A DNA stretch of 56,874 nt from assembly GCA_016177915.1 (NCBI GenBank), contig JACOUI010000377.1, positions 1 through 56,874 of the forward strand, written 5' to 3'. Positions 20,390 to 39,555 of this stretch are shown here, piece after piece (positions within the stretch are counted from its first letter, which is position 1; every line of letters starts with the position of its first letter). The notes under the pieces were generated by a model, which did no database searches, was not told where the DNA came from, and was given only the letters and a program-made list of their open reading frames with translations. This stretch comes from Planctomycetia bacterium. Lineage in GTDB: Bacteria > Planctomycetota > Planctomycetia > Pirellulales > S012-138. Made by a program: the position numbers and the translations under genes.

Positions 20390-20938
20390 TCAGATTTTCG
20401 GAATCTCGCGGCGGATTTGCTCCAGCCGCTCGCGCGTGCCGTGGACGTCGCACCAGCGGTAGACGTAGTCCCAGTCGATCGCGTCGCCCTGGACGGCGAT
20501 GACGTCGCGCACGTCCTCCAAGTCCTTTTTCCGCGCCCAACGCAGCTTGGTGATGATCACGTCTTCGGGGGTCGGCAAGTAAACGTCTCGCCCCGCAACT
20601 TGAATGCGCCGGCGCCGGGCGAAGCGCTCTTGGTCGTGTGCGTCGCCGCCGAGTTTGAAGAGTTCAATCTTGAACGCAGTCTGGGCAACGCGAACGACTG
20701 CTCGCGTCGTGCCCGTGGCCGTCTCAAAGGTGAGCTGCGGGTCCAAGCGAAACTCAGGCCCGAGCCGCGCAACAAGCCACGACAGCGAACCTGATTCAAG
20801 GTCAATGAAGAAGTCGGCGTCCTCCGTCGCGCGGGGGATCCCGTAGTAATTGCTGGACAGAGAGCCGACGACGAGATAGGGCAGATTCTCGGCATTGAGC
20901 GCATCGACGACGGCCAGGGTGTACTCGTCCAGTTTCAA
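20390..20938 (-). CDS. Minimal nucleotidyltransferase-fold protein
   Basis: TTG start at 20938. VVGSLSSNYYGIPRATEDADFFI is a GS...DxD polymerase-beta-type NTase signature. 4-nt TTGA overlap with the upstream small ORF. Confidence 0.7.
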   Translation of the reverse strand: MKLDEYTLAVVDALNAENLPYLVVGSLSSNYYGIPRATEDADFFIDLESGSLSWLVARLGPEFRLDPQLTFETATGTTRAVVRVAQTAFKIELFKLGGDAHDQERFARRRRIQVAGRDVYLPTPEDVIITKLRWARKKDLEDVRDVIAVQGDAIDWDYVYRWCDVHGTRERLEQIRREIPKI

Positions 20939-21165
20939 TTCTGCGTCTCCATCCGCTCTCGGAGCGCAAGCCTCTCCGCCAGAATCCGACGCACGTCTTC
21001 TTCCGACGCACCGGGATTCTGGTTGCGAATTCCCTCAATCGTCATCCAACAGGCGAATTCGAAGAGCCGCGGACCGGCAAGAAATTTTTCCTCCGCAGGC
21101 GTGCTTCTGGCGCGCACGACCTTCTCGCGGTAAATGTCGTCCAGCAGCTCTTTCGTCGGCTCCAT
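20935..21165 (-). CDS. Small helical partner protein of the nucleotidyltransferase
   Basis: ATG 21165 (MEPTKELLDDIYREKVVRARSTPAEEKF...RILAERLALRERMETQN). Stop overlaps the NTase start. Confidence 0.55.
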   Translation of the reverse strand: MEPTKELLDDIYREKVVRARSTPAEEKFLAGPRLFEFACWMTIEGIRNQNPGASEEDVRRILAERLALRERMETQN

Positions 21166-21245
21166 CGCTAGCCCGTCCCGTGCATGTCCAGTGTCGTACG
21201 TCGGCCGCAACGAAAGCGTATTGTAACGCGTGCGATGCCGTCGCC

Positions 21246-22592
21246 CTAAGGTTTCCTCACCCGCGCCCCGTCCGTGAGCGAAGTCTCCGGCGCCAGGACG
21301 ACCTCGTCGCCCGCCTCGAGCCCCTTGGTGATCTCCACGCGCTCGTCGTTCATGAGTCCCACTTGCACCTTCTCCAGCTTCGCCCGGCCGCCGCGAACGG
21401 CGAACACCTGCCAGTCGTTGGCCGCCCCGCGAAAGAGCGCCCCGCGCGGAATGACCAGCGCCTTCTCTTTCTTCGCCGTAAAAATTTTGGCCCGCACGCG
21501 ATACCCCACGCCAATCTGCTGCTCATTCCGCAATCGCTCGATATCCTGGGCGTCGATTCCGATGATCACGCTCACCCGCTGCTGCTCCACGCCCAGCGAG
21601 CTGACCTTCGTGAACCCGGCGGGATAGATCTGCTTGACCGTTCCCGTGGCGCTCTGGGGCCCGATCGCCGGGCCATACAGCTCGACTTCGTTCCCCTCGC
21701 GGACGTTGACCACGTCCTGGCTCAGGATTTCCGCCTCGACCTCCAATTCCTCCAGCGCTCCGATCTCCAGGAGCACCGTCCCGGCCGACAGATACCGCTC
21801 GTCGCGCGCGTGCCGCTCCAGCACCACGCCGTCGACGGGGCTTCTCATCTCGCCGCGCTCAGCGTTGTTTTTGGCCTGCTCGAGCTGCGCCTCGGCCGCC
21901 GCCTTCTGCTGCCTGAGCACGGCTGTTTGCAGCGACTTTCGCGCGATGTACTGCCGCACCAGCGTGGGCAGGAGGTCCGTGGCCGTCTGGATCGACTTCA
22001 GCGCGCTATGGACCAGGTTGTCCTGCTGAAAATCGAACCCCCGCTCGATGTGCTGCAGCTTGGTATCGTCGTATTTCTCCTCGCTAATCAGCTCGTCTCG
22101 CCGGAGCTTCTCCGCCCGCGCCAGGCTGTACTCGGCAAAATCGAGCCGTTTTTTGCCGGCCTCGACGCGCGTGCTCGCGGCCTCGACCGTCTTGCCCATC
22201 GACTCGACGTAGCTCAGCGACTGCTCCAGCGACGTTTGCTCCAGGCTCAAGTCCAGGCTTTCCTCGATCGAGGCCTGCAGCTCATCGACCCGCGCCTGGG
22301 CGACCTTCAGATCCAAGTCGAGATCTTTCGGCACGATCTGCGCCACGACCGCGTCCTTCTCGACGCGCGACCCGACGTCAAGCGCGATCTCGGAGACGCG
22401 CCCGCTATAGGGCATCGTGACGAGGTGCGTCCGCGGCAGCCGCGTCTTGGCCTGCTCGTCGACGAACTCGCGAATCTCGCCCACCTCGGCGCGGTCCGAC
22501 TGCACGACAACTCCGTCCGTCAAAAACCAATACGCCCCCGCGACGGCGAGCAGCACGGCCAAGACAACGACAATCGTGAGGACGGTCTTCAT
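21246..22592 (-). CDS. HlyD-family membrane fusion / periplasmic adaptor protein
   Basis: N-terminal TM MKTVLTIVVVLAVLLAVAGAYWF, a long coiled-coil middle, and barrel-sandwich and beta-barrel-like ends (VTMPYSGRVSEI, MRSPVDGVVLER, KALVIPRGALF). Confidence 0.85.
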   Translation of the reverse strand: MKTVLTIVVVLAVLLAVAGAYWFLTDGVVVQSDRAEVGEIREFVDEQAKTRLPRTHLVTMPYSGRVSEIALDVGSRVEKDAVVAQIVPKDLDLDLKVAQARVDELQASIEESLDLSLEQTSLEQSLSYVESMGKTVEAASTRVEAGKKRLDFAEYSLARAEKLRRDELISEEKYDDTKLQHIERGFDFQQDNLVHSALKSIQTATDLLPTLVRQYIARKSLQTAVLRQQKAAAEAQLEQAKNNAERGEMRSPVDGVVLERHARDERYLSAGTVLLEIGALEELEVEAEILSQDVVNVREGNEVELYGPAIGPQSATGTVKQIYPAGFTKVSSLGVEQQRVSVIIGIDAQDIERLRNEQQIGVGYRVRAKIFTAKKEKALVIPRGALFRGAANDWQVFAVRGGRAKLEKVQVGLMNDERVEITKGLEAGDEVVLAPETSLTDGARVRKP

Positions 22593-22806: not shown

Positions 22807-22834
22807 TTGACCGCGTTCCGCGAATTGCTATACT
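22807..22834 (+). promoter_or_regulatory. Sigma-70-like promoter candidate (TTGACC-16-TATACT) for the 22.9-30.4 kb cluster
   Basis: 5/6 matches in both hexamers. 65 nt upstream of the first cluster gene. Confidence 0.4.
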
Positions 22835-22898
22835 CCGGTTCCCTTCACAAACCTGCAATGGGCGGTTTTCTTATCGATGAGATGAAGCATGGCTGCGG

Positions 22899-23771
22899 TT
22901 GCCGACAACCCGTCGGCCGTTGACACGGTTCCGGTTGTGTCACGAGAGCGCGCTTTGTGCTGCGCCGGCTTCGTTCCTTCCGCTGGCGGCCGCGACCACG
23001 AACTATCTGTGCGCGACGCCGATTTCGCTGGCGGTCTTTCGCCTTTGCGAGCTACGGCGGCTTTCCGATGTGGAGCTGCGCGCGCCGATCGTCGACCTGG
23101 GCTGTGGGGCGGGACAGTTCGTGCGGCTGGCGATGGCGGGACGGGTGGAGATCGGCGTTGACATTTCGCCGCGCCAAGCCGCCGGCGCGCGTCGTAGCGG
23201 GCGGTACGAGCGCGTGGTCGAGGCCGACGCGGCGGAGTTGCCGCTGGCCGATGAGTCTGTGGGCACGGTGCTGGCGGTCTCTTCGCTTGAGCACATGCGG
23301 AGGCCGGAGAAGGTGCTCGCCGAAGCGGGGCGCGTGCTTCAGCCGGGCGGAGTTTTCGCGGCCACGATCGTGCTGCCGGAACTGCGGTCGCATTTGTACT
23401 ATTCGGAGTTGACGCGGCGAATGGGGATCGCGCCATTGGGAAGGCTCTACTGCCGGCTGCACGATTGGGCGTTTGCACACCGGACGCTCCTTCCACAAGG
23501 GCGCTGGGAGCAGTTGGCGGAAGACGCTGGGCTGGAAATCGTGACGAGCCGGCGCTTCTTCTCGCCGGCGATCACGCGATCGTTCGACTTTTGGCTGCCG
23601 CCGGCGGTGCCGTACCGGCTGCTGGCCGCCGCCGGAATGCCGCTGGTCGTGCCGCTGCCGTGGCGGCGACGAATCGTGGAAGGGATGCTCGCGCGCGAAG
23701 AGCGATCGCGCGGAAACGTTGAGGACGGCACACTGTTGTTCCTCCTGGCACGGAAACGGGGGACGCCATGA
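22899..23771 (+). CDS. Class I SAM-dependent methyltransferase (first gene of the cluster)
   Basis: IVDLGCGAGQF (motif I), LPLADESVGTVLAVSSLEHM, LQPGGVFAATIV. TTG start at 22899 (start uncertain). Stop overlaps the next ATG (ATGA). Confidence 0.8.
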   Translation: MPTTRRPLTRFRLCHESALCAAPASFLPLAAATTNYLCATPISLAVFRLCELRRLSDVELRAPIVDLGCGAGQFVRLAMAGRVEIGVDISPRQAAGARRSGRYERVVEADAAELPLADESVGTVLAVSSLEHMRRPEKVLAEAGRVLQPGGVFAATIVLPELRSHLYYSELTRRMGIAPLGRLYCRLHDWAFAHRTLLPQGRWEQLAEDAGLEIVTSRRFFSPAITRSFDFWLPPAVPYRLLAAAGMPLVVPLPWRRRIVEGMLAREERSRGNVEDGTLLFLLARKRGTP

Positions 23772-24694
23772 ACCGCCGCGGCTTCACGCTGGTCGAGTTG
23801 CTGACGGTGCTCTCGATCATCGGGATGCTGCTGTCGCTGCTGATTCCGGCGGTGCAGGCTGCACGCGAGGCGGGGCGGCAGGTGGTGTGCAAGAACAACC
23901 TTCACCAATTGGCGCTGGCCTGCGACCTGCACCACACGACGCTTTCCGTCTATCCGCCCGGCCAGTTCACGGGCCCGAATGGCAAGGGCCCGTATGGCAA
24001 CGGGCCGAATTCGACGGCCTGGAGCTTCCTTGCGCGGGTGCTGCCGTACCTGGAGCGCAAGGACATTTACGAGCACGGCGACATTCCCAATAAGACGCTG
24101 CTGGAGAGCGGCGTGATGCACCTGACGCTTGGGGTGCTGCACTGCCCCAGCAATGGCCCGGCCGTGGCGCTGACCGATCGCGGGAACCTGATGACGTTCC
24201 CGGTCGGGCCGACGAACTACAAGGGCGTGAGCGGCTCAAACTGGGGCATGGACACGTCGTTTGGCGCCGTCCCGATCCCCATGAACACGCAGTGGCCTAA
24301 TACCGGGGCCAACGGCTCGCAGGACGGCCTGGACGACGGCGACGGCATGTTCTTCCGCAGCGACGAGCGGGTCCGGCGGACGGCGGCGCACGTGCGGGAC
24401 GGCCTGTCCAACACGTTCATGCTCGGCGAGGACCTGCCGGAAGAAAACGTGTACTGCTCGTGGCCCTATTCCAACAATGCCTACGGCACCTGCGCAATCC
24501 CGCCGAACTTTTCGAGCGCCGGCGGCCCGGGCGATTACCAGAACCGGTTTGGCTTCCGCAGCAACCACCCGCACGGGCTGCACTTTGCTTTTGCGGGCGG
24601 GGCGGTGCGGCAGGTGAAGGCGTCGATCGACTTGAAGTTGTACCGAAGTTTGGCGACGATTGCCGGAAAAGAGGGGTTGAGCTTGCCCGATTAG
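23768..24694 (+). CDS. DUF1559-family protein with prepilin-type N-terminal methylation segment
   Basis: MNRRGFTLVELLTVLSIIGMLLSLLIPAVQAAREAGR. The C-terminal HPHGLHFAFAGGAV is a variant of the H-X9-DG tail (DG replaced by GG). Confidence 0.9.
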   Translation: MNRRGFTLVELLTVLSIIGMLLSLLIPAVQAAREAGRQVVCKNNLHQLALACDLHHTTLSVYPPGQFTGPNGKGPYGNGPNSTAWSFLARVLPYLERKDIYEHGDIPNKTLLESGVMHLTLGVLHCPSNGPAVALTDRGNLMTFPVGPTNYKGVSGSNWGMDTSFGAVPIPMNTQWPNTGANGSQDGLDDGDGMFFRSDERVRRTAAHVRDGLSNTFMLGEDLPEENVYCSWPYSNNAYGTCAIPPNFSSAGGPGDYQNRFGFRSNHPHGLHFAFAGGAVRQVKASIDLKLYRSLATIAGKEGLSLPD

Positions 24695-24725
24695 AGTTCG
24701 CGCTTTTGGCGCCGGAGGCGCCGCA

Positions 24726-25661
24726 ATGAATTTCCGGGTTGTGCGAACAGTGCTGGGTCTCGTGCTGATCGCGGCGGCCGCCGCGAAGGGGCACGCTTTG
24801 GCCACCGACCCGGCTTGGGCGGACAGTCTGTCAAGCAATCCGTGGGTTGCACCGGGCGTCATTGAAGCGGAGTTTGCGTTCGGGGTCTGGCTGCTTTCGA
24901 ACCGCGCTCCGCGGATTACATGGTGCCTCATGGCGGCGTGTTTTCTAGTGCTCGCTGCTGTCGCCCTGACGGAGGCGACACGGGGGGCGGCGTCCTGCCG
25001 GTGCTTTGGCAAGGTAACGATTAGCCCGTGGTGGACGTTTGCGTTCGACGCGGCGGCGCTGGTTGCAATTGGGCTGTTTCGGCCGAGTCCCCCCGCGAGG
25101 GATGGCGAAACGAGCTGGTCGATGTCTCCACGGTTTGGCGGCGTGCTCTTTGGGGCGTGGCTCTTGGCCGCGGTGTCCGGCGGAACGGCGATTGCGGCGC
25201 TGCGCCCCGCGCCCGTGCCTGTCGAATCGGCCCGGGCTGACGACGCTCGAGCGGTGGTGCTGCGGCCCGAGCAGTGGATTGGAAAGCGGCTGCCTTTGCT
25301 GGCCCATGTTCCCAATGCCGCGGTGTTAGGGCGAGCCGACTGGGTGGTGGTGCTACACCGGCACGACTGTCCGCATTGTCAGGCACTGTCCGCACGGATT
25401 AGAGAAGTCGTTTCCGGCGACGCGCGCCGGGGATGCTTCCGTCGCGTGGCGCGGATCGAATTGCCGCCGCACCCGGCGCCCTCGGAGAGCGAGGAGCCAG
25501 GGCCGTGGCTTTCGGTGAGGCTGAGCGCGCGAAGGACGTGGCTAGGAACCACGCCCGCCATTCTGCTGATCCGCGACGCGGTGGTCCTGCGCGTCGTGGA
25601 CGACGTGCCGTCGATCGGCGACTTCGCACTGACTCCTCCTGCTGGGGAGGCGCTGCCATGA
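24726..25661 (+). CDS. MauE/DoxX-like membrane protein fused to a thioredoxin-fold domain (CPHC)
   Basis: 4-5 predicted TM helices with the MauE-type SCRCFG loop. The C-terminal domain has VVVLHRHDCPHCQAL, a thioredoxin CxxC that matches the DsbA-type CPHC. Confidence 0.75.
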   Translation: MNFRVVRTVLGLVLIAAAAAKGHALATDPAWADSLSSNPWVAPGVIEAEFAFGVWLLSNRAPRITWCLMAACFLVLAAVALTEATRGAASCRCFGKVTISPWWTFAFDAAALVAIGLFRPSPPARDGETSWSMSPRFGGVLFGAWLLAAVSGGTAIAALRPAPVPVESARADDARAVVLRPEQWIGKRLPLLAHVPNAAVLGRADWVVVLHRHDCPHCQALSARIREVVSGDARRGCFRRVARIELPPHPAPSESEEPGPWLSVRLSARRTWLGTTPAILLIRDAVVLRVVDDVPSIGDFALTPPAGEALP

Positions 25662-26224
25662 GTCGCCGTACTTCAGCCATCGGCGCCGGGTTGCTTCTTG
25701 TCGGCGTCGCGGCGTTTGACCTGATCTTCGTGTTCGCGTTTCCGGCGGCGCATCCATCCAAGGAGCGCGACGAGCCCCCGTCTGCACCGATCTCCGGCGG
25801 GAAGACGGTGCCCGGGCGGACGCAGGACTGCGGGGCGAAGAGCCTGTACGTCATTTGCAAGGCGCGCGGCGTGGCCACGTCGATGGAGGAGCTGCGGCGG
25901 TTGACGAGAACGACCGAAGAGGGGACGTCGATGCTCGACCTGAAGCACGCGGCGGGTGCGCTGGGCTTCACGGCCGAGCCCTATGAATTGTCGTTCGAGT
26001 CGCTGCGCCGGCACCTGGCGATCCCGGGCAACTACGCGATCCTGCACGCAAACACCAAGCACTTCTTTCCCGCCGTGGGGAGCAGCGGAAACAAGGTTCG
26101 CGTGTTGGATGCGGCGATTGGCATCGAGGAAGTGGATGAACGCATGTTGCGTTCTTCCCGGTATCGCTGGGAGGGCAAAGCGCTCCTCCTGACTCCGGTC
26201 GAAGAGCAAGCGTCCTCGCATTGA
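25658..26224 (+). CDS. Membrane-anchored stand-alone peptidase C39-like cysteine protease
   Basis: ATGA overlap with the previous gene. N-terminal MSRRTS plus TM AIGAGLLLVGVAAFDLIFVFAF. C39 motifs are QDCGAKSLYVICKARGV (Gln/Cys), AILHANTKHFFPAVG (His) and VRVLDAAIG (Asp). No ABC transporter domain. Confidence 0.75.
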   Translation: MSRRTSAIGAGLLLVGVAAFDLIFVFAFPAAHPSKERDEPPSAPISGGKTVPGRTQDCGAKSLYVICKARGVATSMEELRRLTRTTEEGTSMLDLKHAAGALGFTAEPYELSFESLRRHLAIPGNYAILHANTKHFFPAVGSSGNKVRVLDAAIGIEEVDERMLRSSRYRWEGKALLLTPVEEQASSH

Positions 26225-26234
26225 GGCGGCAGCC

Positions 26235-27278
26235 ATGATCAGTCGTTACAAATTAGCGGTCCTGACAACGTGTGTCGCGCTCTGCGGCTGCGCGGGCAGT
26301 GCCGACGTCGCGACGCAAGGCGGGCCGCGTAACGAAGCCCCGCCCGTCCAATTGGAATTCGAGCCGAAGACAATCGACCTAGGCGATTTGCCGATGGGCG
26401 CAGAGCGCGCGTTTAGCGCCAAGGTCGTCAATCGCACGGGCGCGACCGTGACGGTCCGCGACATGCTTCCGAATTGCCGATGCGCCAAAGTGGAACTGCC
26501 CGAGCGCGCTATCGCCCCCGGCCAAAGCGTTAGCCTGAAGGGGTCTTTTGTCGCGGGCGACGCGGCAGGCCTGGTACGTACGTACGTGGTCCTCGATGTG
26601 GAGGGAGGCCAGTACCCGCTGGAACTTCGCGCGAACGTCATCCGGCAGGTTTCGTGGTCGCCCGCAGTCGTCGTTCTGGCCCCGGACGTGGTAGCGGACG
26701 CGGCGGGCGAAGGCGCGTTTACGGTTACGAACGGGTCATCCGAGGCTGTATCGCTTTCTGAAGCGTCCAGCGAGCGCGTGGGCGCGTCACTCGTTTTGCC
26801 GCCCGATCCAATTGCGCCGGGTGCCTCCGCCCCGATCAGGGTTCGTTGCGGCCCCGGCGCCGTCCAGCCGCGCGATTTGACGGTCAGGGTACTCACGTCG
26901 CATCGCTTTGAGCAGAGATTGGACCTGCCCGTCCAGGTTCGCCCAAAGAGTACCGTCGAAGTGAAACCAGCCGCCATTCATTTCGGAGTCATCTCCAAAG
27001 ACGATCTGCTGAACCGTGAGCACATCGAGGTCGTCATGGACGGAGACGTGTTGGATTCGTACAAGTTTGAAGGCGTCGACACGCCACCCTACCTAAGGCT
27101 TAGCGGCTTTACGTCCATTGCCGCGCAAAGTCGGCGGATCGTCGACCTTGTCGTGCTCGACTCGTTTCGCGGCATCGACTTGGGGAGCACGCTCGCGTTC
27201 CGGTTCTCGCGGCGCGCGGGCGGGGCCGATTTGGTGGTCGAGCTTCCGATAAGCGGGTTCCTTGCCACATCCGAATAG
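26235..27278 (+). CDS. DUF1573 (Ig-like/ASH-type) domain protein, signal/lipoprotein-like N-terminus
   Basis: IDLGDLPMGAERAFSAKVVNRTGATVTVRDMLPNCRCAKVEL fits the DUF1573 pattern (G.v..g......f.v.N.G...l.i..v...C.C). N-terminal LAVLTTCVALCGCAGS. Confidence 0.75.
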   Translation: MISRYKLAVLTTCVALCGCAGSADVATQGGPRNEAPPVQLEFEPKTIDLGDLPMGAERAFSAKVVNRTGATVTVRDMLPNCRCAKVELPERAIAPGQSVSLKGSFVAGDAAGLVRTYVVLDVEGGQYPLELRANVIRQVSWSPAVVVLAPDVVADAAGEGAFTVTNGSSEAVSLSEASSERVGASLVLPPDPIAPGASAPIRVRCGPGAVQPRDLTVRVLTSHRFEQRLDLPVQVRPKSTVEVKPAAIHFGVISKDDLLNREHIEVVMDGDVLDSYKFEGVDTPPYLRLSGFTSIAAQSRRIVDLVVLDSFRGIDLGSTLAFRFSRRAGGADLVVELPISGFLATSE

Positions 27279-27325
27279 TCAGATTCGGCAACTTCAACTG
27301 ACTCGAACCTAGAGAGGAGCTTTCC

Positions 27326-27808
27326 ATGCGGCGCGTTACGATGCTCGTGTTGTTGATTCTCGTGGCTTGCGTCCTTAGCGCGTCCGCACCGTCTGCTCTC
27401 CGCGAGACTCCTGGCAGGCCCTTGGCCGCCGCGGAGGCCGCCGCGCTTCGCGGATCGCAGACTGGCGCCCACTGGTGCAATCAGTTCCCCGCCTGCGACT
27501 TTCCGCCTACCGGTTCGTGCCCTGGAGGCACAGTCCTCTGTGAGGGCAAGCAGCCCAATCAAAAGTGCGCTTCCCCGCTCGACCTCATCTATTGGGACCG
27601 TCCAGAGGAGTGCAATCCCGAGTCGGGACATCAGTATTGCTCAGTGTACCAATATAGGCAGGTGCTCTGTCGGACATTCATGGACTGTCTCTGCGACTAC
27701 GTCGACGAGGAGCTGACGTGCAGCAAGCAAGCCCCGGCCAACACTACCTGTAAGAACATCCTGCTCGACCCGTGTACGTGCTCCTTTACGCCGTGTCCAG
27801 GCAGTTGA
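27326..27808 (+). CDS. Cys-rich secreted/lipoprotein-like small protein (160 aa, 16 Cys)
   Basis: AGGAG lies 6 nt upstream of ATG 27326. N-terminal MRRVTMLVLLILVAC is a lipobox-like LVAC. It is followed by PLAAAEAAALRGS and a 116-aa region with 15 Cys. No homologue recognised. Confidence 0.65.
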   Translation: MRRVTMLVLLILVACVLSASAPSALRETPGRPLAAAEAAALRGSQTGAHWCNQFPACDFPPTGSCPGGTVLCEGKQPNQKCASPLDLIYWDRPEECNPESGHQYCSVYQYRQVLCRTFMDCLCDYVDEELTCSKQAPANTTCKNILLDPCTCSFTPCPGS

Positions 27809-27909
27809 TCGCGCGCTGACAGTCCGCCTTGCAATCACTCGGAGACATCTGCACGTCAGTCAGCAGGCAGGCACGCCCGTCACCGGAGCCACATTCTCAT
27901 CTCTTACTC

Positions 27910-29025
27910 ATGGAGCGGCGACAGTTCATTATGCGCAACAGAGTTCTTCTGGTCACTGCGTGCATGTTGTTGGCCATGACGAGCCGCATCGCCACTGGCG
28001 ACGACGGCTTGGCCATGGCGGTCGAAGCATGGAAGGCGTCTTCAACAGCCGTGACCTCCGGCGAGGGTACTGGGACGTTCCTGTACGAAAAGCGCAACAC
28101 GCCAACCGGACCGTGGAAAACCATCACCGACGCGCGCGTGTCTGTCTTCTTCGACAAGGAGAAATACCACATTCGGATGGAGTGCTCTAAGGAATGGCTT
28201 GGAGCCCGACGACGCATCATCATTCACGACGGATCTGCGATCTTCAGCAGCCGGTTCGTGACGGGAGCTCAACCCGTTGATGGCCAGGGTGAAGTGTTCC
28301 TCAACCGGAACGTCGGGGGAATGGTACGGCCCGAAGCCGCAGGCGTGCCGTGGGACGTGAGTAGACTTCCCTACAGTCTCGGCAATCTTCCCTTGATGGT
28401 GAAGAAGGTCGGCGCGGAGAACATCGCGGTGACGCGAACAGCGGAGGGCGACTACATTCTATCGCACGCGGTAGTCAATAGCCCCAACGTACGGGTGGAG
28501 CGCCACTGCCTGCGTCAGTACGGGTACAACATCGGTATCAAACGGTTACTAACCGTGGGGCAGGACACGCCGACTCAGGAGTTCAACGCCACATGGAAGA
28601 AAGCGGGGCACGTCTGGTACATTGCATCCATTGAAGAGAATTCGACCGTAAAAGACACCGAGTCTGAAACCGTCTACCACCGGTGGAAGTTGAGCTACGA
28701 CAACTTCACTCCCAACGCCGCGGTTCCCGCGAGCCGTTTCAGCTTCGCCGCGCTGGAGCTTCCCGGGGGAGCGCGCATCCTCGATCACAGGCCCGCGACG
28801 GCGGCACCCATTCGGTACGTTCCGGTGAAGGATGCGGAGATGGAAGCGAAAATGGACAGCCTGGTCGAGCAGCTCAACAGCCTGCCTTCCACGCGGCCCA
28901 AGCGCGGGGAGGTCGAAGGCGCCGAAGGCAGCATCCGCTGGTGGGTGTTCGGGGCGGTCAATGCTCTTGTCGCCATTACGGTCATCGTCTTGCTCGTGCG
29001 CATGCGCCGTCGCAAGACCGCCTGA
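27910..29025 (+). CDS. Secreted protein with C-terminal TM anchor and Arg-rich tail (hypothetical)
   Basis: ATG 27910 or 27931. Signal-like MRNRVLLVTACMLLAMTSRIATG. C-terminus WWVFGAVNALVAITVIVLLVRMRRRKTA. The middle may be a LolA-like beta fold (weak impression only). Confidence 0.65.
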   Translation: MERRQFIMRNRVLLVTACMLLAMTSRIATGDDGLAMAVEAWKASSTAVTSGEGTGTFLYEKRNTPTGPWKTITDARVSVFFDKEKYHIRMECSKEWLGARRRIIIHDGSAIFSSRFVTGAQPVDGQGEVFLNRNVGGMVRPEAAGVPWDVSRLPYSLGNLPLMVKKVGAENIAVTRTAEGDYILSHAVVNSPNVRVERHCLRQYGYNIGIKRLLTVGQDTPTQEFNATWKKAGHVWYIASIEENSTVKDTESETVYHRWKLSYDNFTPNAAVPASRFSFAALELPGGARILDHRPATAAPIRYVPVKDAEMEAKMDSLVEQLNSLPSTRPKRGEVEGAEGSIRWWVFGAVNALVAITVIVLLVRMRRRKTA

Positions 29026-29080
29026 AGCGGACCCGCGGAAGTCCTTGGGCGGCGATCGCGCCCGGAACCCCCCACCCCAA

Positions 29081-29104
29081 CCCTCCCCCACAAGGGGGGG
29101 AGGG
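29081..29104 (+). terminator. Hairpin CCCTCCCCC-ACAAGG-GGGGGAGGG after gene 27910..29025
   Basis: 9-bp stem 55 nt after the stop. No U tract. It lies inside the cluster, so it is possibly an attenuator or processing site rather than a full terminator. Confidence 0.3.
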
Positions 29105-29129
29105 GGCAAGAGGAGCGGAAGATCAGCCG

Positions 29130-30374
29130 ATGAACGGCCGCGCACGCTCTACTTGGCAGTGGGTTGTTTGGGCCGCCGGTCACTACCTGACAAGCTGCGT
29201 GGTCTTTGTCGCCGTCTGGATCGGAGTCTTCGTCGCTCCGTCAGTGCGCGCCCCGCGGAGCTACCTGGGCGGCTTTGTCCAGATCGACGGGATATCGCAC
29301 GAGGAACTCGTCACGCGCGGCTACGCCGACGCCCCGAGAACTGCGGCGCGCTTTCCCGCGTACATTGTGCTGTCTTGGGCCGTCGAGCGGCTCACCGGCG
29401 CGAGCGCGGCCCTGGCACTCGTCCTGACGGCGAACGCCTGCTTTTTGGCGGCGCTGATCGTGTTGGCCAAGTACCTTGCCGAGCGCCGGAGAGTTGAAGG
29501 CGGCGTCGCTGGGCCTCCGCAGCGCGTCGACCTGACGCTCTTGGCGCTGGGCCTGTGGCCATTCTCGCTCTTTTTTCGAATGGCCTACACCGAGTCGCTG
29601 TTCCTGCTCTGTGCGATCGTGTCGATGTACGCCATCGAGCGCCGCTGGCCCGCGTGGGCGATCGCGCTCGTCGTCGGCCTGACGACTGCCACTCGGCCCG
29701 TTGGCGTCGCTCTCGTCGCGGTGTTTGCGATGCACCTCTGGCAGGAATCCCGCCGTAATGCGCTGAGATCACCGGCCCGATCGTTGCGCTCTTTCGTCCC
29801 GCGCGCGGCGCTTTGGCTGCCGCTCTCCTGCTGGGGACTCATCGCCTACATGGCCTATCTGCACCTCCAGTTTGGCGACGCCTTCGCCTTCGCCCACGCC
29901 CAGGACATGTGGGTGCGCCGCGCCACTTACTGGCCCGAAAAAATCGTGCCGCTCGTGGCGCTGGAGCCGCTGTGGTCCCCGTACGTCCACGGCGCCACGA
30001 CCTATTGGCGCAGTTACGACTCGGGCAATAACCCACTCTTGAGCTTCGGCTTCGTGAACCCCATCGTCTTCGTTCTCACCGTGGCGGCGGTCGTGACGGG
30101 CGCGATCAAGAAGTGGCTGAACGGCCGCGAGCTTTTGCTGTGCGGTCTGCTCCTGGGCATCCCGTACGTGACGATGGCCTACGACAACATCATGCTGGGC
30201 CAAGCGCGCTTCGCGTCGGTGGTTTTTCCCGCGTACATCGTCCTGGGGCGCTTGCTTCGGCGCCTGCCACCGTGGGCGATCGCCGTCTTTTTCGTCCTCT
30301 GCGCCCTGCTCCTTGGCTTTTACTCCGCCCTGTTTGCCGGGGGGTACGGTCAGACGTGCAGGGTGCTTTACTGA
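29130..30374 (+). CDS. Polytopic membrane protein, GT-C / PIG-V-like mannosyltransferase family
   Basis: ATG 29130 within ORF 28683..30374. Many TM helices. FFRMAYTESLFLLCAIVSMY and the overall layout resemble PIG-V/GT-C glycosyltransferases. Confidence 0.65.
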   Translation: MNGRARSTWQWVVWAAGHYLTSCVVFVAVWIGVFVAPSVRAPRSYLGGFVQIDGISHEELVTRGYADAPRTAARFPAYIVLSWAVERLTGASAALALVLTANACFLAALIVLAKYLAERRRVEGGVAGPPQRVDLTLLALGLWPFSLFFRMAYTESLFLLCAIVSMYAIERRWPAWAIALVVGLTTATRPVGVALVAVFAMHLWQESRRNALRSPARSLRSFVPRAALWLPLSCWGLIAYMAYLHLQFGDAFAFAHAQDMWVRRATYWPEKIVPLVALEPLWSPYVHGATTYWRSYDSGNNPLLSFGFVNPIVFVLTVAAVVTGAIKKWLNGRELLLCGLLLGIPYVTMAYDNIMLGQARFASVVFPAYIVLGRLLRRLPPWAIAVFFVLCALLLGFYSALFAGGYGQTCRVLY

Positions 30375-32182: not shown

Positions 32183-32503
32183 TTGAAGTTCACGACCTTG
32201 ATCCCGCTGACGCGCAACGACGGCTCGCGCGTGCGCCGCTCGGAATTGTCGGCGCTGGTCGAATCGCTGTGGCGGCCGTTTGGAGGCATGACCGAAGAGG
32301 GGCACGTGACCGGCCACTGGATCGCCCCGCCTGATGGTACGCATTTTCAGGATACGTGCCTGAAGGTGTCGATCGAAACCGACCGGGAACGCCTGCCAGA
32401 TGCGATCGCTGCCGTGAAGAGGATCGGCCGCGCGCTCGGTCAGCGGGCGATGTACTTCGAGGTCTCGGGCTACGACGGGGTTCAGTTCTTACGGATCGAG
32501 TAA
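32183..32503 (+). CDS. Hypothetical small protein (106 aa)
   Basis: TTG start preceded by AGGTGA. MKFTTLIPLTRNDGSRV...AMYFEVSGYDGVQFLRIE. Family not recognised. Confidence 0.5.
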   Translation: MKFTTLIPLTRNDGSRVRRSELSALVESLWRPFGGMTEEGHVTGHWIAPPDGTHFQDTCLKVSIETDRERLPDAIAAVKRIGRALGQRAMYFEVSGYDGVQFLRIE

Positions 32504-32549
32504 CCAAACAGCCACCGAATTGCGAGAGCTTTTTTCTGGGAGCGATGCC

Positions 32550-32981
32550 ATGCCGAAAATCGCCAAAAAGACGAGCACCAAGGGAGTCGAGTCCAAGGCC
32601 CGCGAGCTGCTGACCTTCGCGCGCAGCCGCGCGAAGGAAGCGCGCGACTGGATCGAGCTGCACAACGCTTTGTTCGGCATCGGCGGCAAGGCGACGGAGC
32701 TGTTTCCGACGGAAGCCGAGCGCACGGCATTTTCCCGAATGCCCGAGTGCAAACAGGTGCACGCCCTGATGGACACGCTTTCAGACCCGCCTGCCAAGGT
32801 CTTTGGGGACCTCCTGGCCACGGCGCACGGAGCGATCAGCATTCGTTTGCCGCGGTCGCTGCACGCGGCGCTTTTGGCGGAGGCGGAGGCGGAAGGCGTC
32901 AGCCTGAACCAGCTCTGCGTGTCGAAGCTTGCCGTGCAACTGCGGGCCTCCGTTCACGGACCCGCGACGCGTGCGGGGTAA
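32550..32981 (+). CDS. HicB-like / ribbon-helix-helix antitoxin-family protein
   Basis: C-terminal ISIRLPRSLHAALLAEAEAEGVSLNQLCVSKLA is the RHH tail typical of HicB-family antitoxins. The N-terminal half is not recognised. Confidence 0.55.
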   Translation: MPKIAKKTSTKGVESKARELLTFARSRAKEARDWIELHNALFGIGGKATELFPTEAERTAFSRMPECKQVHALMDTLSDPPAKVFGDLLATAHGAISIRLPRSLHAALLAEAEAEGVSLNQLCVSKLAVQLRASVHGPATRAG

Positions 32982-33000
32982 GCGAGTCGGATGTAGCATC

Positions 33001-33207
33001 ATGCAGTGGCAAAAGCTCCTCAAAGCGGCGCTCCTTTTGCCGGAGACCGAGCGGCTCATTCTGGCGACGCAATTGCTGGAGTCCATTCCTGCGGATGACG
33101 GGTGCTGGTCCGTCGAGGATCCCGGATTTCTCGAGGAGCTCGATCGGCGGTCGAGCGATGGCTCGACCGCGGTTCCGCTATCGGAGTTGTGGGACAACCG
33201 GCGCTGA
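33001..33207 (+). CDS. Putative addiction-module antitoxin component (Unstab_antitox-like)
   Basis: ATG 33001. MQWQKLLKAALLLPETERLILATQLLESI ... EELDRR matches the pattern of the putative addiction module component family. No toxin gene follows. Confidence 0.6.
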   Translation: MQWQKLLKAALLLPETERLILATQLLESIPADDGCWSVEDPGFLEELDRRSSDGSTAVPLSELWDNRR

Positions 33208-33228
33208 TTGAGGCACGGAATCCCGAAC

Positions 33229-33308
33229 GGCAGGCGGGACGCCTACCCCACGAACGGCAGGCGGGACGCCTACCCCACGAATGGCAGGCGGGCCGCCTAC
33301 CCTACGAC
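33229..33308 (+). repeat. Three tandem 26-27-nt REP-like units GGCAGGCGGGACGCCTACCCCACGAAC
   Basis: Units at 33229-33255, 33256-33282 and 33283-33308. About 100 nt upstream of the A2M start. Confidence 0.9.
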
Positions 33309-33405
33309 GCGGAACCTTTCTTCCTTAAGGTTCGTCCAATCGTTAAAGTGCCTGCGCCACGCCCGATCGGGGTCTTGCCCCATCCTCTCAACCCAGCGTA
33401 ACTCC

Positions 33406-36400
33406 ATGCTGCGCCAACGCTTCCTTTCCGTTGCACTCGTGCTCGTGATGGGCGGCCTTGTGCTCGCCGCCGCCGAAGAGGCACAAAGCCCCAGCCGCGA
33501 CAACGCCAAGAAACTCTTCGACCAGGGCAACTACAACGAGGCCTACAACGCCTACCGCAAGCTGGCCCTCGACAAGGACACGGATCCCAAGCAGGTCGGC
33601 CAGGACCTGCACATGGGCATCCAGAGCCTGCAAAACCTCGGCCGCGTCGATGAGAACGACGCCTTCCGCGAGGGCGTCATCGACGTTCACAAAACCAACT
33701 GGCGCCTGCTTCAGGCCGCCGCCCATTCCTACATTCAGGACCAGCACTTCGGGTTCATCATCGCCGGAAAATTCGAGCGCGGCCATCGCCGCGGGCAGGG
33801 GAAGTTCGTCAGCGCCATGCAGCGCGACCGCGTGCGGGCCTTGCAACTCATGCAACAAGCCTACGACCTGGCGCTAGCCGACAAGAACGCCTCGAAGGAA
33901 GAACAGGCCGCGGTGTGCTTCGATTTCGCCGACATGCTGCTCCGCGGCCGATACTACGAGGCCTGGCGCCTGCAGTATTTGACCGACCTGGCGACGCTGC
34001 CCGACTACGAAGAGACCTACGGCTACTGGTACGGCTGGGGCGGCGGCGGCAGCCAGGGCGCGCCGGTCGACGTCGAAGGCAACCCGATCTACCACAAGCT
34101 GCCCGAGAGCTATCAGAAGGCGGCGTCCGACGGCGAGCGCTGGCGGTCCCTGCTGGAGCAGACGGCGCAACTGCACGCCGCCCGGCGGAGCGAAGTCGAT
34201 TACCACTTCGCCAGCTTCCTGTGGCAGCAATTCGACGTGCACACCGCCGCCTACTACGGCCGCTTCTTTTCCGAGGACGACGGCGACACGGGCGGCGAGA
34301 ACAAGCCGCCCAAGGCCAGCGCCTTTTCCGTGCGCACGCTGACCGAGGACGAGACGATCGCGCGGCTGGCCACCGGCGTCAAGCGATTCAAGCTGCCCGA
34401 CGAATTCAACTTCATCAAGATCTACCGGGCCATCGCCGACCGCGGCAAAGGGCCCTTCGGCGGACAAGCGCTTGATCAGCTTGCGCAGATCTTCGAGAAC
34501 CGCGTGCAATACCCCAAGGCAGCCCAGCTTTGGCAGCGCGGCCTGAAGGAGTACGGCGACCAGAACCACCGGCAGGCGCGGATCGACCAGATCCTGAAGA
34601 ATTGGGGCCGCTTCGAGAACGCGCAGGTCCAGCCCGCCGGCCAGGGGGCGACCGTCGAGTTCCGCTACCGCAACGGCAAGAAGGTCTCCTTCGAGGCCCA
34701 TGCGATCAACGTCACGAAGCTGCTGGCCGACGTGAAGGCCTATCTCAAGAGCAGCCCGCCGCAGCTCGACTGGCAGAAGATGGACATCAGCAACGTCGGC
34801 TACCGTCTGGTGCAGCAGGACCAGGCGGCCTACATCGGCGAGAAGGTGGCCTCGTGGGACCTGGAGCTCAAGCCGCGCGCGGAGCACCTCGACCGCCGCG
34901 TCACCGTCACGACGCCCCTGCAAAAGGCCGGCGTCTATCTGCTCACGGCCCGCATGGAAGGCGGCCACGTGAGCCGCATCATCATGTGGCTGGACGACAC
35001 GGCCCTCGTCAAGAAGGCCCTGCACGGCAAGTCGTACTACTTTATCGCTGACTCGATCACGGGCCAGCCCATCGAAAAGGCCAACGTCGAGTATTTCGGC
35101 TGGAAGCAGGTTCCGATCGATCAGAAACGCAACCAGTGGCGGATCACCACGGCGAACTTCGCCGAGTACAGCGACAAGGACGGGCAGGTGATCCTTGGGC
35201 CCGAACGCCTGCCGCAAGACCACCAATGGATGATCGTCGCCCGCACCGCCTCCGGCCGGCTGGCCTACCTCGGCTTCACCGGCGCCTGGTACGGCCAGTA
35301 CTACGACTACGAGTACAACCAGACAAAGGTGTTTGTGATGACCGATCGGCCGGTTTACCGGCCCGAACAGGCCGCCAAGTTCAAATACTGGGTCCGCCAC
35401 GCCAAGTACGACCAGGCCGACACGTCGTCGTTCGCCAAGCAGCAGTTCCGCGTGCAGATCAACGACCCGATGGGCGAAAAGGTCCACGAGGAGACCGCCA
35501 CGGCCGACGAATACGGCGGCATCGCCGGCGAGATCAAGCTGGCCAAGGGCTGCAAGCTCGGCGTCTACAGCGTGCAGGTCTTCCAGGGCCAGAACGGCCT
35601 GGGCGGCGGCTCGTTCCGCGTCGAGGAATACAAAAAGCCCGAGTTCGAGGTGACCATCGAGGCCCCCAAGGAGCCGGTGATGCTCGGCGAAAAGATCGCC
35701 GCCGAGATCAAGTCGAAGTACTACTTCGGCGCGCCCGTCACCAAGGCCAAGGTCAAGTACAAGGTCCTCCGCAGCTCTCACAGCCAGCACTGGTTCCCCA
35801 TCGCCCGCTGGGATTGGTTCTATGGCCGCGGCTACTGGTGGTACGCCTACGACTACGTCTGGTATCCCGGCTGGAAGGAATGGGGCTGCTTCCGCCCGAT
35901 CTGGTGGTGGTGGGGGCACGCCGAGCCTCAGCCCGAGGTCGTCATGGAGTCCGAGGTGCCCGTCGGCGCCGACGGCATCGTGAAGGTCGAGATCGACACC
36001 GCGCTAGCCAAGGAACTGCACGGCGACACCGACCACTCCTATTCCATCACGGCGGAAGTGGTCGATGAATCGCGCCGCACGATCGTCGGTCAGGGCGAAG
36101 TCCTCGTCGCCCGGCATCCCTTCAAGGTCTTCGCCTGGGTCGATCGCGGGCATTACCGCGTGGGCGACACGGTGACGGCCAGCTTCGACGCCCACACGCT
36201 GGACAACAAGCCGGTCCAGGGCAAAGGCGAGCTGAAGCTCCTTTCGATCACGTACAACGAAAAGGGCGTGCCGCAGGAAAAGGAAGTCCAGAATTGGAAG
36301 CTCGACACCGACGCGCAAGGGCACGCGCAGCAGCAGATCAAGGCCTCGGAGGCGGGGCAGTATCGCCTCTCCTACAAGCTTACTGACGCCAAGAACCACA

Positions 36401-39400: not shown

Positions 39401-39555
39401 TCCGCGCCCTGGCCCGCGGCAAGAGCAGCGTGAGCTACCGCGTGCGGGCGGAGATCCCCGGCCGCTTCAGCGCGCTGCCGACGCGGGCTTATGCGATGTA
39501 CGCGCCGGAATTGAAGGGGAATTCCGACGAGATCAAGGTGCGGATCGAGGATTAG
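33406..39555 (+). CDS. Alpha-2-macroglobulin family protein with thioester (2049 aa)
   Basis: ATG 33406 gives signal-like MLRQRFLSVALVLVMGGLVLAAAEEAQS. Multiple MG-type beta-sandwich repeats. Thioester motif YPYGCTEQT (CTEQ at 37939-37950). The C-terminal receptor-binding-like end is FRVRAEIPGRFSALPTRAYAMYAPE. Confidence 0.9.
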   Translation: MLRQRFLSVALVLVMGGLVLAAAEEAQSPSRDNAKKLFDQGNYNEAYNAYRKLALDKDTDPKQVGQDLHMGIQSLQNLGRVDENDAFREGVIDVHKTNWRLLQAAAHSYIQDQHFGFIIAGKFERGHRRGQGKFVSAMQRDRVRALQLMQQAYDLALADKNASKEEQAAVCFDFADMLLRGRYYEAWRLQYLTDLATLPDYEETYGYWYGWGGGGSQGAPVDVEGNPIYHKLPESYQKAASDGERWRSLLEQTAQLHAARRSEVDYHFASFLWQQFDVHTAAYYGRFFSEDDGDTGGENKPPKASAFSVRTLTEDETIARLATGVKRFKLPDEFNFIKIYRAIADRGKGPFGGQALDQLAQIFENRVQYPKAAQLWQRGLKEYGDQNHRQARIDQILKNWGRFENAQVQPAGQGATVEFRYRNGKKVSFEAHAINVTKLLADVKAYLKSSPPQLDWQKMDISNVGYRLVQQDQAAYIGEKVASWDLELKPRAEHLDRRVTVTTPLQKAGVYLLTARMEGGHVSRIIMWLDDTALVKKALHGKSYYFIADSITGQPIEKANVEYFGWKQVPIDQKRNQWRITTANFAEYSDKDGQVILGPERLPQDHQWMIVARTASGRLAYLGFTGAWYGQYYDYEYNQTKVFVMTDRPVYRPEQAAKFKYWVRHAKYDQADTSSFAKQQFRVQINDPMGEKVHEETATADEYGGIAGEIKLAKGCKLGVYSVQVFQGQNGLGGGSFRVEEYKKPEFEVTIEAPKEPVMLGEKIAAEIKSKYYFGAPVTKAKVKYKVLRSSHSQHWFPIARWDWFYGRGYWWYAYDYVWYPGWKEWGCFRPIWWWWGHAEPQPEVVMESEVPVGADGIVKVEIDTALAKELHGDTDHSYSITAEVVDESRRTIVGQGEVLVARHPFKVFAWVDRGHYRVGDTVTASFDAHTLDNKPVQGKGELKLLSITYNEKGVPQEKEVQNWKLDTDAQGHAQQQIKASEAGQYRLSYKLTDAKNHTIEGGYIFVVIGQGFDGSEFRFADIELITDKREYAPGEKVKLMVNTNRAGAAVVLFVRPANGIYLPPKVLRLKGKSAVEEIEVATKDMPNFFVEAFTIHGGKLHNEMREVIVPPEKRVIDVAVTPSQTEYLPGAPAKVQIKLTGADGKPFEGSTVVSVYDKSVEYISGGTNVPEIREFFWKWRRTHYPQRECSLDRWFYNLLKSGEIGMSDLGVFGGQVAEELEKSFEGADKPGQQAASAAPGGPAGGYAKRGQGRSNLRQANGLANRKESKDEGGPAAPPPPPAGQVQPAVRKSFADTAFWAASVTTDKNGMAEVALTMPENLTGWKVKCWAMGHGTKVGQGEAEVVTRKNIIVRLQAPRFFVEKDEVVLSANVHNYLKTDKKTDVVLELEGSTLAPMGDLAANVNIPAGSELRVDWRVKVTKEGEALVRMKALTDEESDAMEMKFPVFVHGMLKTESFSGVIRPDKELASVAFTVPSERRINQTRLEVRYSPTLAGAMVDALPYMVEYPYGCTEQTLNRFLPTVVTHNVLKRMNLDLKAIQEKRTNLNAQEIGDDKERAKAWKRFDRNPVFDADEVLRMVKEGVDALTSMQCSDGGWGWFSGWGEHSWPHTTAIVVHGLQIAKANDVALVPGTLENGVEWLKRYQAQELVKIKNAPTMTQPWKPNADSLDALVYMVLVDAGHNDAEMMEFLYRDRTKISVYAKAMFGLALHNVDQIEKRDMILRNIEQYLVQDDENQTAFLRLPPGSFWWYWFDDEIESNAYYLKLLTKVNPKDERCSRLVKYLLNNRKHATYWNSTRDTSLCIEAFAEYIQASGEDKPDMTVQIVLDGKPLKEVKITPQDLFTFDNKFVLEGDAVESGPHKLEVKRTGKGPVYFNAYLTNFTLEDFITKAGLEVRVNRKYYKLTRVDKTEKVAGSRGQALDQKVEKYERSEISNLGTLKSGDLVQIELEIDSKNDYEYLIFEDMKGAGFEPVDVRSGYTGNEMGAYVEFRDEKVSFFVRALARGKSSVSYRVRAEIPGRFSALPTRAYAMYAPELKGNSDEIKVRIED

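Follow-up and report, generated by a model that had tools for sequence, protein, structure and literature searches.

A cluster of eight co-directional genes, g1 to g8, occupies positions 22899-30374 (plus strand) of the 56,874-nt stretch of Planctomycetia bacterium contig JACOUI010000377.1 (GCA_016177915.1) analyzed here, hereafter the window. Based on comparisons with related loci, the cluster is probably a modular member of a Planctomycetota-wide cassette that would mature a fast-evolving, disulfide-rich secreted protein of ~115 aa, the product of g6, in the periplasm. The support for this reading is comparative throughout, comprising domain identities, active-site residues, synteny and a motif correlation, from which we infer the biochemical steps, the topology and the biological role of the cassette. 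A sequence-only reading of the same DNA had proposed an undescribed system for the export and oxidative maturation of a Cys-rich protein. The processing and disulfide-forming parts of that proposal gained comparative support, whereas export is not encoded in the cluster and is presumed to proceed via Sec. Similarly, "undescribed" does not hold for the DsbB-like oxidase role of MauE or for its frequent fusion to thioredoxin (bioRxiv 10.64898/2026.03.05.709764), but it stands for the cassette, which does not seem to have been described before. We found no description of it in the searchable literature: MauE, C39 and DUF1573 together returned only noise, and DUF1573 with Planctomycetes returned nothing.

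The proposed peptidase and its substrate are encoded by g4 and g6, in which the following features were located.

25658-26224, plus strand: g4, stand-alone C39 cysteine peptidase with an N-terminal signal-anchor (PF03412, 1.9e-17).
25829-25831, 26060-26062 and 26108-26110, plus strand: catalytic residues C58, H135 and D151 of g4, from alignment to PCAT1 and ComA.
27326-27457, plus strand: pre-pro region of g6, a hydrophobic signal segment and a double-glycine-type propeptide ending L-A-A-A-E-A-A-A-L-R-G-S.
27458-27808, plus strand: predicted mature domain of g6, 116 aa with 15 Cys, fast-evolving (stop codon included).

The g6 gene has a strong Shine-Dalgarno sequence (AGAGGAG) upstream and encodes a protein of 160 aa with 16 Cys and no family match. 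This protein had been described from the sequence as a 15-Cys protein with a GG-type leader; the count of 15 is correct for the part after the predicted cleavage site and not for the whole chain. The double-glycine consensus was applied as G at -2; G, A or S at -1; hydrophobic residues at -4, -7 and -12; and an acidic residue at -8. The predicted cleavage site of g6, LAAAEAAALRGS, fits this consensus, with L at -12, E at -8, L at -4, G at -2 and S at -1. Homologues of g6 were recovered only in two related loci, L001 and L073, both of which keep the Cys pattern and the leader. Specifically, a search of 5.8 billion proteins returned a single homologue, in L001 (42% identity in the hit table, 46% pairwise), and the third member of the family lies in L073 (metagenome-assembled genome, MAG, GCA_019347905.1; E 2.7e-18). 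The sequence LVAC of the window protein fits a lipobox; it is not kept in L001 or L073, and assignment of g6 as a lipoprotein was rejected.

Positional analogues of g6 occur in more than 20 loci. Small Cys-rich open reading frames (ORFs), defined by a signal-like N-terminus and at least 8 Cys, were found within 6 kb of MauE-thioredoxin (MauE-Trx) homologues 18 times on the same strand and twice on the opposite strand; no same-strand example lay further than 6 kb away. These ORFs are mostly unalignable between loci, and we consider them the probable substrates of the cassette. Their leaders differ according to the presence of a C39 gene. In C39 loci, the hydrophobic segment is followed by a spacer of 13-28 aa that ends in h-x-G-[G/A/S/R] with an acidic residue upstream (for example, LSDKEQGEVWGG, SRESAELIGG, LLDLRGG and LMLIRGA). 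In loci without C39, the signal leads straight into the Cys-rich domain (AFA/Q, AWA/Q, TYA/D). A GG-type propeptide was present in 10 of the 11 Cys-rich ORFs from C39 loci versus 1 of 12 where C39 is missing (Fisher p = 1e-4, post hoc), and the median spacer between the signal segment and the first Cys was 23 aa with C39 and ~8.5 aa without. Seven C39-linked precursors found later all carried GG or GA. This correlation, which bears out the GG-type leader first noted in g6, suggests that the C39 enzymes process the Cys-rich proteins after Sec export, and it is the strongest evidence that they act on the small Cys-rich ORFs.

The product of g4 comprises 188 aa and matched PF03412 with 63.8 bits (cutoff 22). 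As originally read, it consists of a C39 domain alone, with no ABC domain. Alignment by phmmer to the peptidase domains of PCAT1 (4ry2) and ComA (3k8u), at 1e-7, placed C58, H135 and D151 on the PCAT1 motifs DCG, HF and DP, respectively, so the Cys/His/Asp triad, whose loss would have spoken against the sequence-only reading, is intact. Across nine cassette C39 proteins, C58, G59 and H135 were invariant. The N-terminus of g4, MSRR followed by 20 hydrophobic residues, resembles an N-in signal anchor, and sister C39 proteins have a cleavable-looking signal and a C-terminal transmembrane (TM) helix with a basic tail. In three single-ORF C39-TM-TM-DUF1573 fusions, the loop between the two TM helices is basic, which would place both domains on the same, periplasmic side of the membrane. 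Based on the positive-inside rule and these fusions, the C39 domain of g4 is predicted to face the periplasm. A further ORF, at 6526-7668 of L007, encodes a C39 domain, TM helices and a C-terminal domain that appears rhodanese-like by eye (YCQSAGC), and would be another fusion of C39 to a redox or sulfur domain.

In some type 1 secretion ABC transporters, a C39-like domain serves as a non-proteolytic chaperone. It is conceivable, and in our view highly improbable, that g4 is likewise a chaperone or cuts another substrate (g7, the DUF1573 protein, a pseudopilin or the GT-C protein), the GG-like motif of g6 being incidental. For FapD, the one periplasmic C39 peptidase studied so far, the substrate is still unclear (PMC5557850), and g4 is without the canonical oxyanion Gln. 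Set against these points are the retained triad, the occurrence of GG, GA or GS propeptides in essentially all C39-adjacent Cys-rich ORFs and in almost none elsewhere, and the leader of g6, which is better kept than its mature part.

The candidate oxidative components are g3 and g5.

24726-25661, plus strand: g3, predicted MauE-type membrane disulfide oxidase joined via a fifth TM helix to a thioredoxin-fold domain (PF07291, 2.9e-9).
24996-25010, plus strand: CXC-FG motif of g3, C91-R-C93-F-G, the predicted MauE active site (alignment).
25368-25379, plus strand: thioredoxin-type CPHC of g3, C215-C218; C-P-x-C is invariant in six homologues.
26235-27278, plus strand: g5, DUF1573 Ig-like periplasmic protein with a CXC, C81-R-C83, at 26475-26483 (PF07610, 2.6e-13).

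Residues 5-117 of g3 matched PF07291 (37.8 bits, cutoff 27). When g3 was aligned with five homologues (28-84% identity), the invariant residues were K21, E49, C91-x-C93-F94-G95, PWWTF and C215-P-x-C218. According to a preprint of March 2026, MauE proteins substitute for DsbB in Escherichia coli, their active site being a periplasmic CXC followed by F-G in the TM3-TM4 loop, with a conserved Lys in TM1 and Glu in TM2 near the predicted quinone site (bioRxiv 10.64898/2026.03.05.709764). The same study reported that 8.2% of InterPro MauE entries are joined to a thioredoxin-superfamily domain and argued that MauE is a generalist oxidase. Matched by description rather than by direct residue alignment, g3 appears to have all of the published active-site features. 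Its thioredoxin domain gave no Pfam match in the profile search. The AlphaFold2 (AF2) model of g3, with a mean predicted local distance difference test (pLDDT) score of 63, comprises five helices and then an alpha/beta domain. Block-mean pLDDT values in the latter were ~44-86, mostly 65-86, and a helix at 216-231 follows a strand at 205-211. The top Foldseek matches of the model were all thioredoxin, TlpA, ResA or CcmG folds (probability ~1.0, E only 5e-3). This model, of moderate quality, is the one line of evidence by which a thioredoxin fold is supported. The fusion named in the sequence-only reading, MauE to a thioredoxin fold with CPHC, is supported by the PF07291 match and the CPHC at 215-218 and, moderately for the thioredoxin part, by the model. 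By analogy with VKOR-thioredoxin fusions, the fifth helix would bring the chain back to the periplasm.

The g5 product matched PF07610 with 50.2 bits (cutoff 26.1). The motif (S/T)-C-x-C is kept in 39 of 47 MauE-linked and 10 of 10 C39-linked DUF1573 copies (49/57 in total); g5 has N-C-R-C. Single-ORF fusions link DUF1573 to both enzymes, as MauE-Trx-DUF1573 in L012 and L016 and as C39-TM-TM-DUF1573 in L058 and, twice, L010. In two further fusions, of MauE and DUF1573 without a Trx domain (L057, 395-2503; L061, 2855-3898), DUF1573 occupies the place of the thioredoxin partner. Two prokaryotic selenoproteome reviews (PMC9312934, PMC13188914) list a DUF1573 selenoprotein that has U-G-C at the CXC position. 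Such a replacement is usual for redox cysteines with a catalytic role. The conserved CXC, its U-G-C form and the replacement of Trx in the MauE fusions together point to DUF1573 as a probable redox partner; we propose that it is the second partner of MauE, acting in disulfide transfer or like an isomerase. This proposed role, and the recurrence of methyltransferase and GT-C genes described below, go beyond the original interpretation of the locus.

Conservation of the cassette was evaluated from two anchors. MauE-Trx as the anchor yielded 70 loci, nearly all in Planctomycetota MAGs and often several per genome. In iterated hidden Markov model (HMM) searches of these ~70 loci, DUF1573 was present in 39, usually adjacent, C39 in 7 and DUF1559 in 17; other recurrent neighbors were PMT_2 GT-C, GT2, an LPG_synthase_TM protein and methyltransferases. 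The C39-anchored set comprised six look-ups and twelve metagenome loci, the latter obtained via an alignment of the C39 subfamily. Loci of this set with enough flanking sequence carried DUF1573, C39 (often with a 4-nt overlap), a small ORF and a g7-like protein. The complete quartet of DUF1573, C39, small Cys-rich ORF and g7-like gene was present in L074 (Blastopirellula marina), L077, L078, L079, L084 and L086. Three of its four genes were present in L076, L083, L089 and L091, which are at contig ends or rearranged, and no Cys-rich ORF was recovered in L087. L001 keeps the order DUF1559-MauE-C39-DUF1573-Cys-g7-g8. The order in L073 is DUF1559-PMT_2-x-C39-DUF1573-Cys-g7-GT2-methyltransferase, with no MauE within 10 kb and no g8 homologue. 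MauE was directly upstream only in the window, L001, L086 and L089; MauE-Trx was present in ~4 of 11 C39-anchored cassettes with upstream sequence. The constant core is therefore DUF1573, C39, the Cys-rich ORF and the g7-like gene; MauE-Trx, GT-C, GT2 and methyltransferase are frequent optional modules, most of which the window cassette carries. The families singled out in the sequence-only reading do co-occur in relatives as far as DUF1573, C39 and the Cys-rich ORF are concerned, but MauE-Trx is not constant among them.

The B. marina-labelled assembly GCA_002967715.1 holds one cassette (locus tag C5Y96_19030). This cassette, L074 (16695-20648 of PUIA01000057), adjoins a transposase, HamA with a helicase (Hachiman-like) and a NERD protein, neighbors that suggest a variable genomic island. 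In L079, an IS3-type element at 11304-12482 (HTH_Tnp_1, HTH_21, rve) lies between the Cys-rich gene and its g7-like partner, and a second copy occurs a few kb downstream.

The components of the cassette have diverged to different extents. Between the window and L001, identity was 84-87% for g3, g4 and g8, 66-67% for g5 and g7, and 46% overall for g6, in which the leader (61%) is better kept than the mature domain (40%). The g6 product thus appears to evolve fastest and g5 and g7 at intermediate rates, as expected if both contact the variable domain. Base composition also sets the cassette apart. Third-position GC (GC3) is 0.72-0.75 in g3-g8 (24726-30374) versus 0.82-0.95 in the flanking genes, and regional GC falls to 0.62-0.64 at 26-30 kb. 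The low GC3 points to horizontal acquisition or to a difference in expression. Several distinct cassettes coexist in some genomes (L005, L007, L010), which, together with the low GC3, fits an accessory, exchangeable element. Most likely, the g6 product serves in antagonism, in the manner of a bacteriocin, or in recognition, and not in housekeeping.

Envelopes of planctomycetes are rich in protein and in cystine. The Cys-rich protein might accordingly be a structural component of the envelope or surface, in a locus for envelope glycosylation and cross-linking in which g7 is an anchor or assembly platform. The recurrence of GT-C, GT2, the LPG_synthase_TM flippase-like protein and methyltransferase in these loci would suit such a role, as would the weak resemblance of the g7 C-terminus to sorting-signal models. 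A structural protein is difficult to reconcile with a mature region that is 40% identical where the enzymes are ~85% identical and is unalignable between most loci, with several different cassettes per genome, with a GC3 below that of the flanks, which suggests an accessory, mobile element, or with the defense genes next to the B. marina cassette. We consider this explanation quite improbable.

Under the preferred reading, that of a maturation cassette, g6 would be made as a pre-pro-protein with an N-terminal hydrophobic Sec signal or anchor, a ~20-aa propeptide and a 116-aa domain, as read from its sequence. Once g6 has been exported by Sec, the MauE domain of g3, linked to quinone, would re-oxidize the CPHC of its own thioredoxin domain and probably also the CXC of g5. 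The thioredoxin domain and g5 would then introduce or shuffle approximately seven disulfides in g6. Membrane-tethered, periplasmic g4 would cut g6 after G-S, removing the propeptide; if the signal of g6 is uncleaved, this cut would also free the mature domain from the membrane. Possibly, g8 mannosylates a periplasmic target from a polyprenyl-phosphate sugar, with g1 acting in the same sugar branch. More speculatively, g7, a type-I anchored periplasmic protein that seems to evolve in step with g6, might be a cognate immunity factor, a receptor or an escort.

Several observations weigh against this scheme. MauE-Trx is missing from most C39 cassettes (L073, L074, L077-L079) and C39 is found in only 7 of the ~70 MauE-Trx loci, a poor overlap that suggests that the oxidase may be shared or general. 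The sequence of g4 has no canonical oxyanion Gln at the position six residues ahead of its catalytic Cys, and the periplasmic orientation of g4 is predicted from charge bias and the fusions. The g6 leader ends in G-S and that of L073 in G-R instead of G-G, with GG or GA in 14 other C39-linked precursors. The regular expression for the leader was composed after the sequences had been inspected. The number of mature Cys, 15, is odd, and the cluster encodes no outer-membrane export step. Finally, the role proposed for g7 is speculative and that for g8 weakly inferred.

The same poor overlap bears on an alternative in which the unit is restricted to DUF1573, C39, the Cys-rich protein and g7, MauE-Trx being a general periplasmic oxidase for many substrates, including Cys-bearing DUF1559 pseudopilins. 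MauE-Trx is absent from at least five C39 cassettes, MauE has been called a generalist (bioRxiv 10.64898/2026.03.05.709764), g2 has 5 Cys, and DUF1559 genes lie near 17 MauE-Trx loci. The copy number of MauE-Trx speaks otherwise: single MAGs hold multiple copies (five in Bythopirellula JTS-AC311 and five in bin Y23_14dBSd3.bin.101), which would be unexpected for one housekeeping oxidase. So does its placement, 4-165 nt from Cys-rich ORFs in L005, L010, L042, L057 and L058 and, in the window, overlapping g4 by ATGA. We regard a general oxidase as unlikely.

Compared with known systems, the cassette most closely resembles glycocin (sublancin/pallidocin) clusters (sunA, sunS, sunT, bdbA, bdbB; PMC6405829). 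Both combine a C39 peptidase with a Cys-containing precursor that has a GG-type leader, and both add a DsbB-like membrane oxidase together with thioredoxin-like and glycosyltransferase components, the last two being putative in the window. The two differ in where and with what parts they would operate. In glycocin systems, C39 is the cytoplasmic N-terminal domain of an ABC exporter and there is no Sec signal, whereas here it is stand-alone and apparently periplasmic, with a hydrophobic N-terminal signal. Glycocin systems use a DsbB homologue and a cytoplasmic GT2 S-/O-glycosyltransferase, in contrast to a MauE-Trx and a GT-C that are predicted to act in the periplasm. Glycocin products have ~40 aa and two disulfides, compared with ~115 aa and 10-15 Cys here, and the cassette additionally carries DUF1573 and g7-like proteins. 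The window cluster has no GT2, of the SunS type or otherwise; in some relatives, a GT2 resembling polyprenyl-phosphate-sugar synthases is additionally present.

The exporter peptidases PCAT and ComA (4ry2, 3k8u) share the fold family and triad of g4, and their substrates have G-G/A/S, hydrophobic residues at -4 and -12 and an acidic residue at -8. They differ in that g4 is without an ABC transporter, signal-anchored and predicted to be on the opposite side of the membrane, and in that the substrates here have a Sec-type segment before the leader. An exporter of the PCAT, SunT or ComA type was rejected: g4 is C39 only, no ABC gene was found in the scanned ~10 kb, and the N-terminus of g6 is signal-like. 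That an active, stand-alone C39 peptidase can reside in the periplasm has a precedent in FapD, from the Fap amyloid system of Pseudomonas; the authors of that study called this class uncharacterized (PMC5557850). FapD substrates are without a canonical GG leader, unlike the C39-linked precursors of the cassette. Assignment of g4 as a FapD equivalog (NF058616) was rejected at 13.4 bits versus a cutoff of 330 (E = 0.033), with no Fap genes or FapF barrel.

Among oxidative systems, g3 shares the CXC-FG, Lys and Glu of MauE with the methylamine dehydrogenase (mau) cluster; the window cluster is without MauA, MauB and MauG. A mau cluster was rejected, as the eight genes and the scanned flanks contained no match to mauA, mauB or mauG. 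The logic proposed for the cassette is that of VKOR-thioredoxin and DsbB/DsbA, in which a quinone-linked four-helix oxidase re-oxidizes a CXXC thioredoxin partner, sometimes fused via an extra TM helix. Here, however, the oxidase belongs to the MauE family with CXC rather than CXXC, and there is a candidate second partner, the Ig-like, CXC-bearing DUF1573 protein. The MauE preprint makes no mention of Planctomycetota, C39, DUF1573 or dedicated Cys-rich substrates (bioRxiv 10.64898/2026.03.05.709764); in the present loci, the oxidase occurs in multiple copies and as part of a cassette.

A broader proposal, which we put forward tentatively and with more doubt than conviction, is that Planctomycetota possess widespread, horizontally shuffled cassettes for a hypervariable, disulfide-knotted and possibly mannosylated protein with a cognate, membrane-anchored g7-like partner, which would constitute a new class of antagonism and immunity or self-recognition systems that depend on Sec and mature their product in the periplasm. 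In this proposal, DUF1573 would be a hitherto unrecognized Ig-fold CXC thiol-disulfide oxidoreductase partnering MauE, and the C39 enzymes the first periplasmic double-glycine peptidases with identifiable substrates. The analysis provides testable functions for three families: DUF1573 as a MauE redox partner, stand-alone periplasmic C39 with candidate substrates and sites, and g7-like proteins as cognate partners. The MauE disulfide pathway gains a candidate dedicated substrate and a multi-copy cassette context. The Planctomycetota pool of diverse, ~115-aa disulfide-rich proteins could yield antimicrobials or stable scaffolds, and the B. marina cassette may allow these hypotheses to be tested in a cultured organism.

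The remaining features of the cluster are as follows.

22807-22834, plus strand: sigma-70-like promoter match, TTGACC-16-TATACT, TG-extended (10/12 consensus positions).
22899-23771, plus strand: g1, class I S-adenosylmethionine methyltransferase (Methyltransf_11, 3e-20); start uncertain, TTG first possible.
23768-24694, plus strand: g2, DUF1559 pseudopilin-like protein with a prepilin N-methylation signal (PF07596, 6.7e-34; N_methyl, 1.8e-6).
27910-29025, plus strand: g7, secreted beta-rich domain of ~330 aa with a C-terminal TM helix and RRRK tail (family alignment).
29130-30374, plus strand: g8, polytopic PIG-V-like GT-C glycosyltransferase (transitive homology).

The C-terminus of g7 reads ...VIVLLVRMRRRKTA. 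Homologues of g7 lie downstream of the Cys-rich ORF in L001, L073, L074, L076-L079, L024, L044, L084, L086 and L087, the last without a recovered Cys-rich ORF. There was no Pfam match for g7 and no PDB match for its profile, and a single-sequence AF2 model reached a pLDDT of 40. In the g7 family, a conserved (R/S)-x-W precedes the C-terminal TM helix, and the C-terminus weakly resembles sorting-signal models (GG_III-CTERM, 0.0016; Heimdall-CTERM; Loki-CTERM), all below cutoff. For g8, there was no Pfam match at E<=1 and no PDB sequence match. Its assignment, PIG-V-like GT-C as originally read, holds by transitive homology: the search returned 2769 homologues at E<=1e-3, and 24 of 61 aligned homologues (34-54% identity) match PF04188, Mannosyl_trans2 (best 3e-12). 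Other cassettes carry a PMT_2 GT-C in place of the g8 type. Comparisons with hhalign of g8 to PMT_2 clusters and of g7 to other anchored proteins were uninformative: with alignments this shallow, two PMT_2 clusters also failed to match each other.

Methyltransferases like g1 recur in related cassettes (L073, L077, L025, L028, L040). DUF1559 occupies the same position as g2 in L001, L073 and L077; its tie to the cassette is weak because the family is very abundant in planctomycetes. In L026, L027, L031, L033, L039 and L040, a clade that includes several Sedimentisphaerales or Pirellulales MAGs, DUF1573-MauE-Trx lies beside type II secretion or type IV pilus genes (GspD-like and GspE-like by eye) and a conserved 317-aa protein of no assigned family.

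The layout of the cluster agrees with the sequence-only reading. The list of ORFs contains the eight co-directional genes, with ATGA overlaps read in the sequence at 23768 (g1/g2) and 25658 (g3/g4) and other intergenic gaps of 31, 10, 47, 101 and 104 nt, assuming starts at ATG 27910 for g7 and ATG 29130 for g8. Profile-HMM searches of every ORF, as had been suggested, matched Methyltransf_11, DUF1559, MauE, Peptidase_C39 and DUF1573, leaving g6, g7 and g8 without a Pfam match. Genes were delimited using stop-to-stop ORFs and HMMs; a GC3-based caller miscalled g4 and g7 because the cassette genes are low in GC3. The upstream TTGACC-16-TATACT is present as a consensus match, one of three such matches per 9 kb versus 0.8 expected, and is a suggestive candidate promoter. 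A scan of genes to ~10 kb on either side revealed no ABC transporter, MauA, MauB, MauG, radical-SAM or lanthionine enzyme, in agreement with what had been noted. These flanks are unrelated to the cassette and include DUF1501, HPPK, DNA methylase and RpoD genes as well as HtrA-like proteases.

A C-tract/G-tract inverted repeat at 29069-29106, between g7 and g8 and just 5' of the g8 ribosome-binding site, was rejected as a hairpin, being no more stable than shuffled sequences (z = -0.42). An HlyD-family membrane-fusion gene (21246-22592, minus strand) is divergent from the cluster and has a 300-nt promoter region in common with it. No ABC or outer-membrane partner of this gene was found nearby, and it was rejected as a member of the system on the grounds that it lacks both a counterpart in related cassettes and an ABC partner. 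Toxin-antitoxin-like pairs lie on both sides of the cluster (20390-21210, minus strand; 32183-33207, plus strand), one side having a DUF2204 nucleotidyltransferase and an Rv0078B-like antitoxin and the other a HicB-like gene and small neighboring ORFs. Immediately beyond, at 33208-39555 (plus strand), is a 2115-aa bacterial alpha-2-macroglobulin with MG2, A2M, TED and MG10 domains; its ORF opens with an odd repeated NGRRDAYPT peptide, and the true start is probably further downstream.

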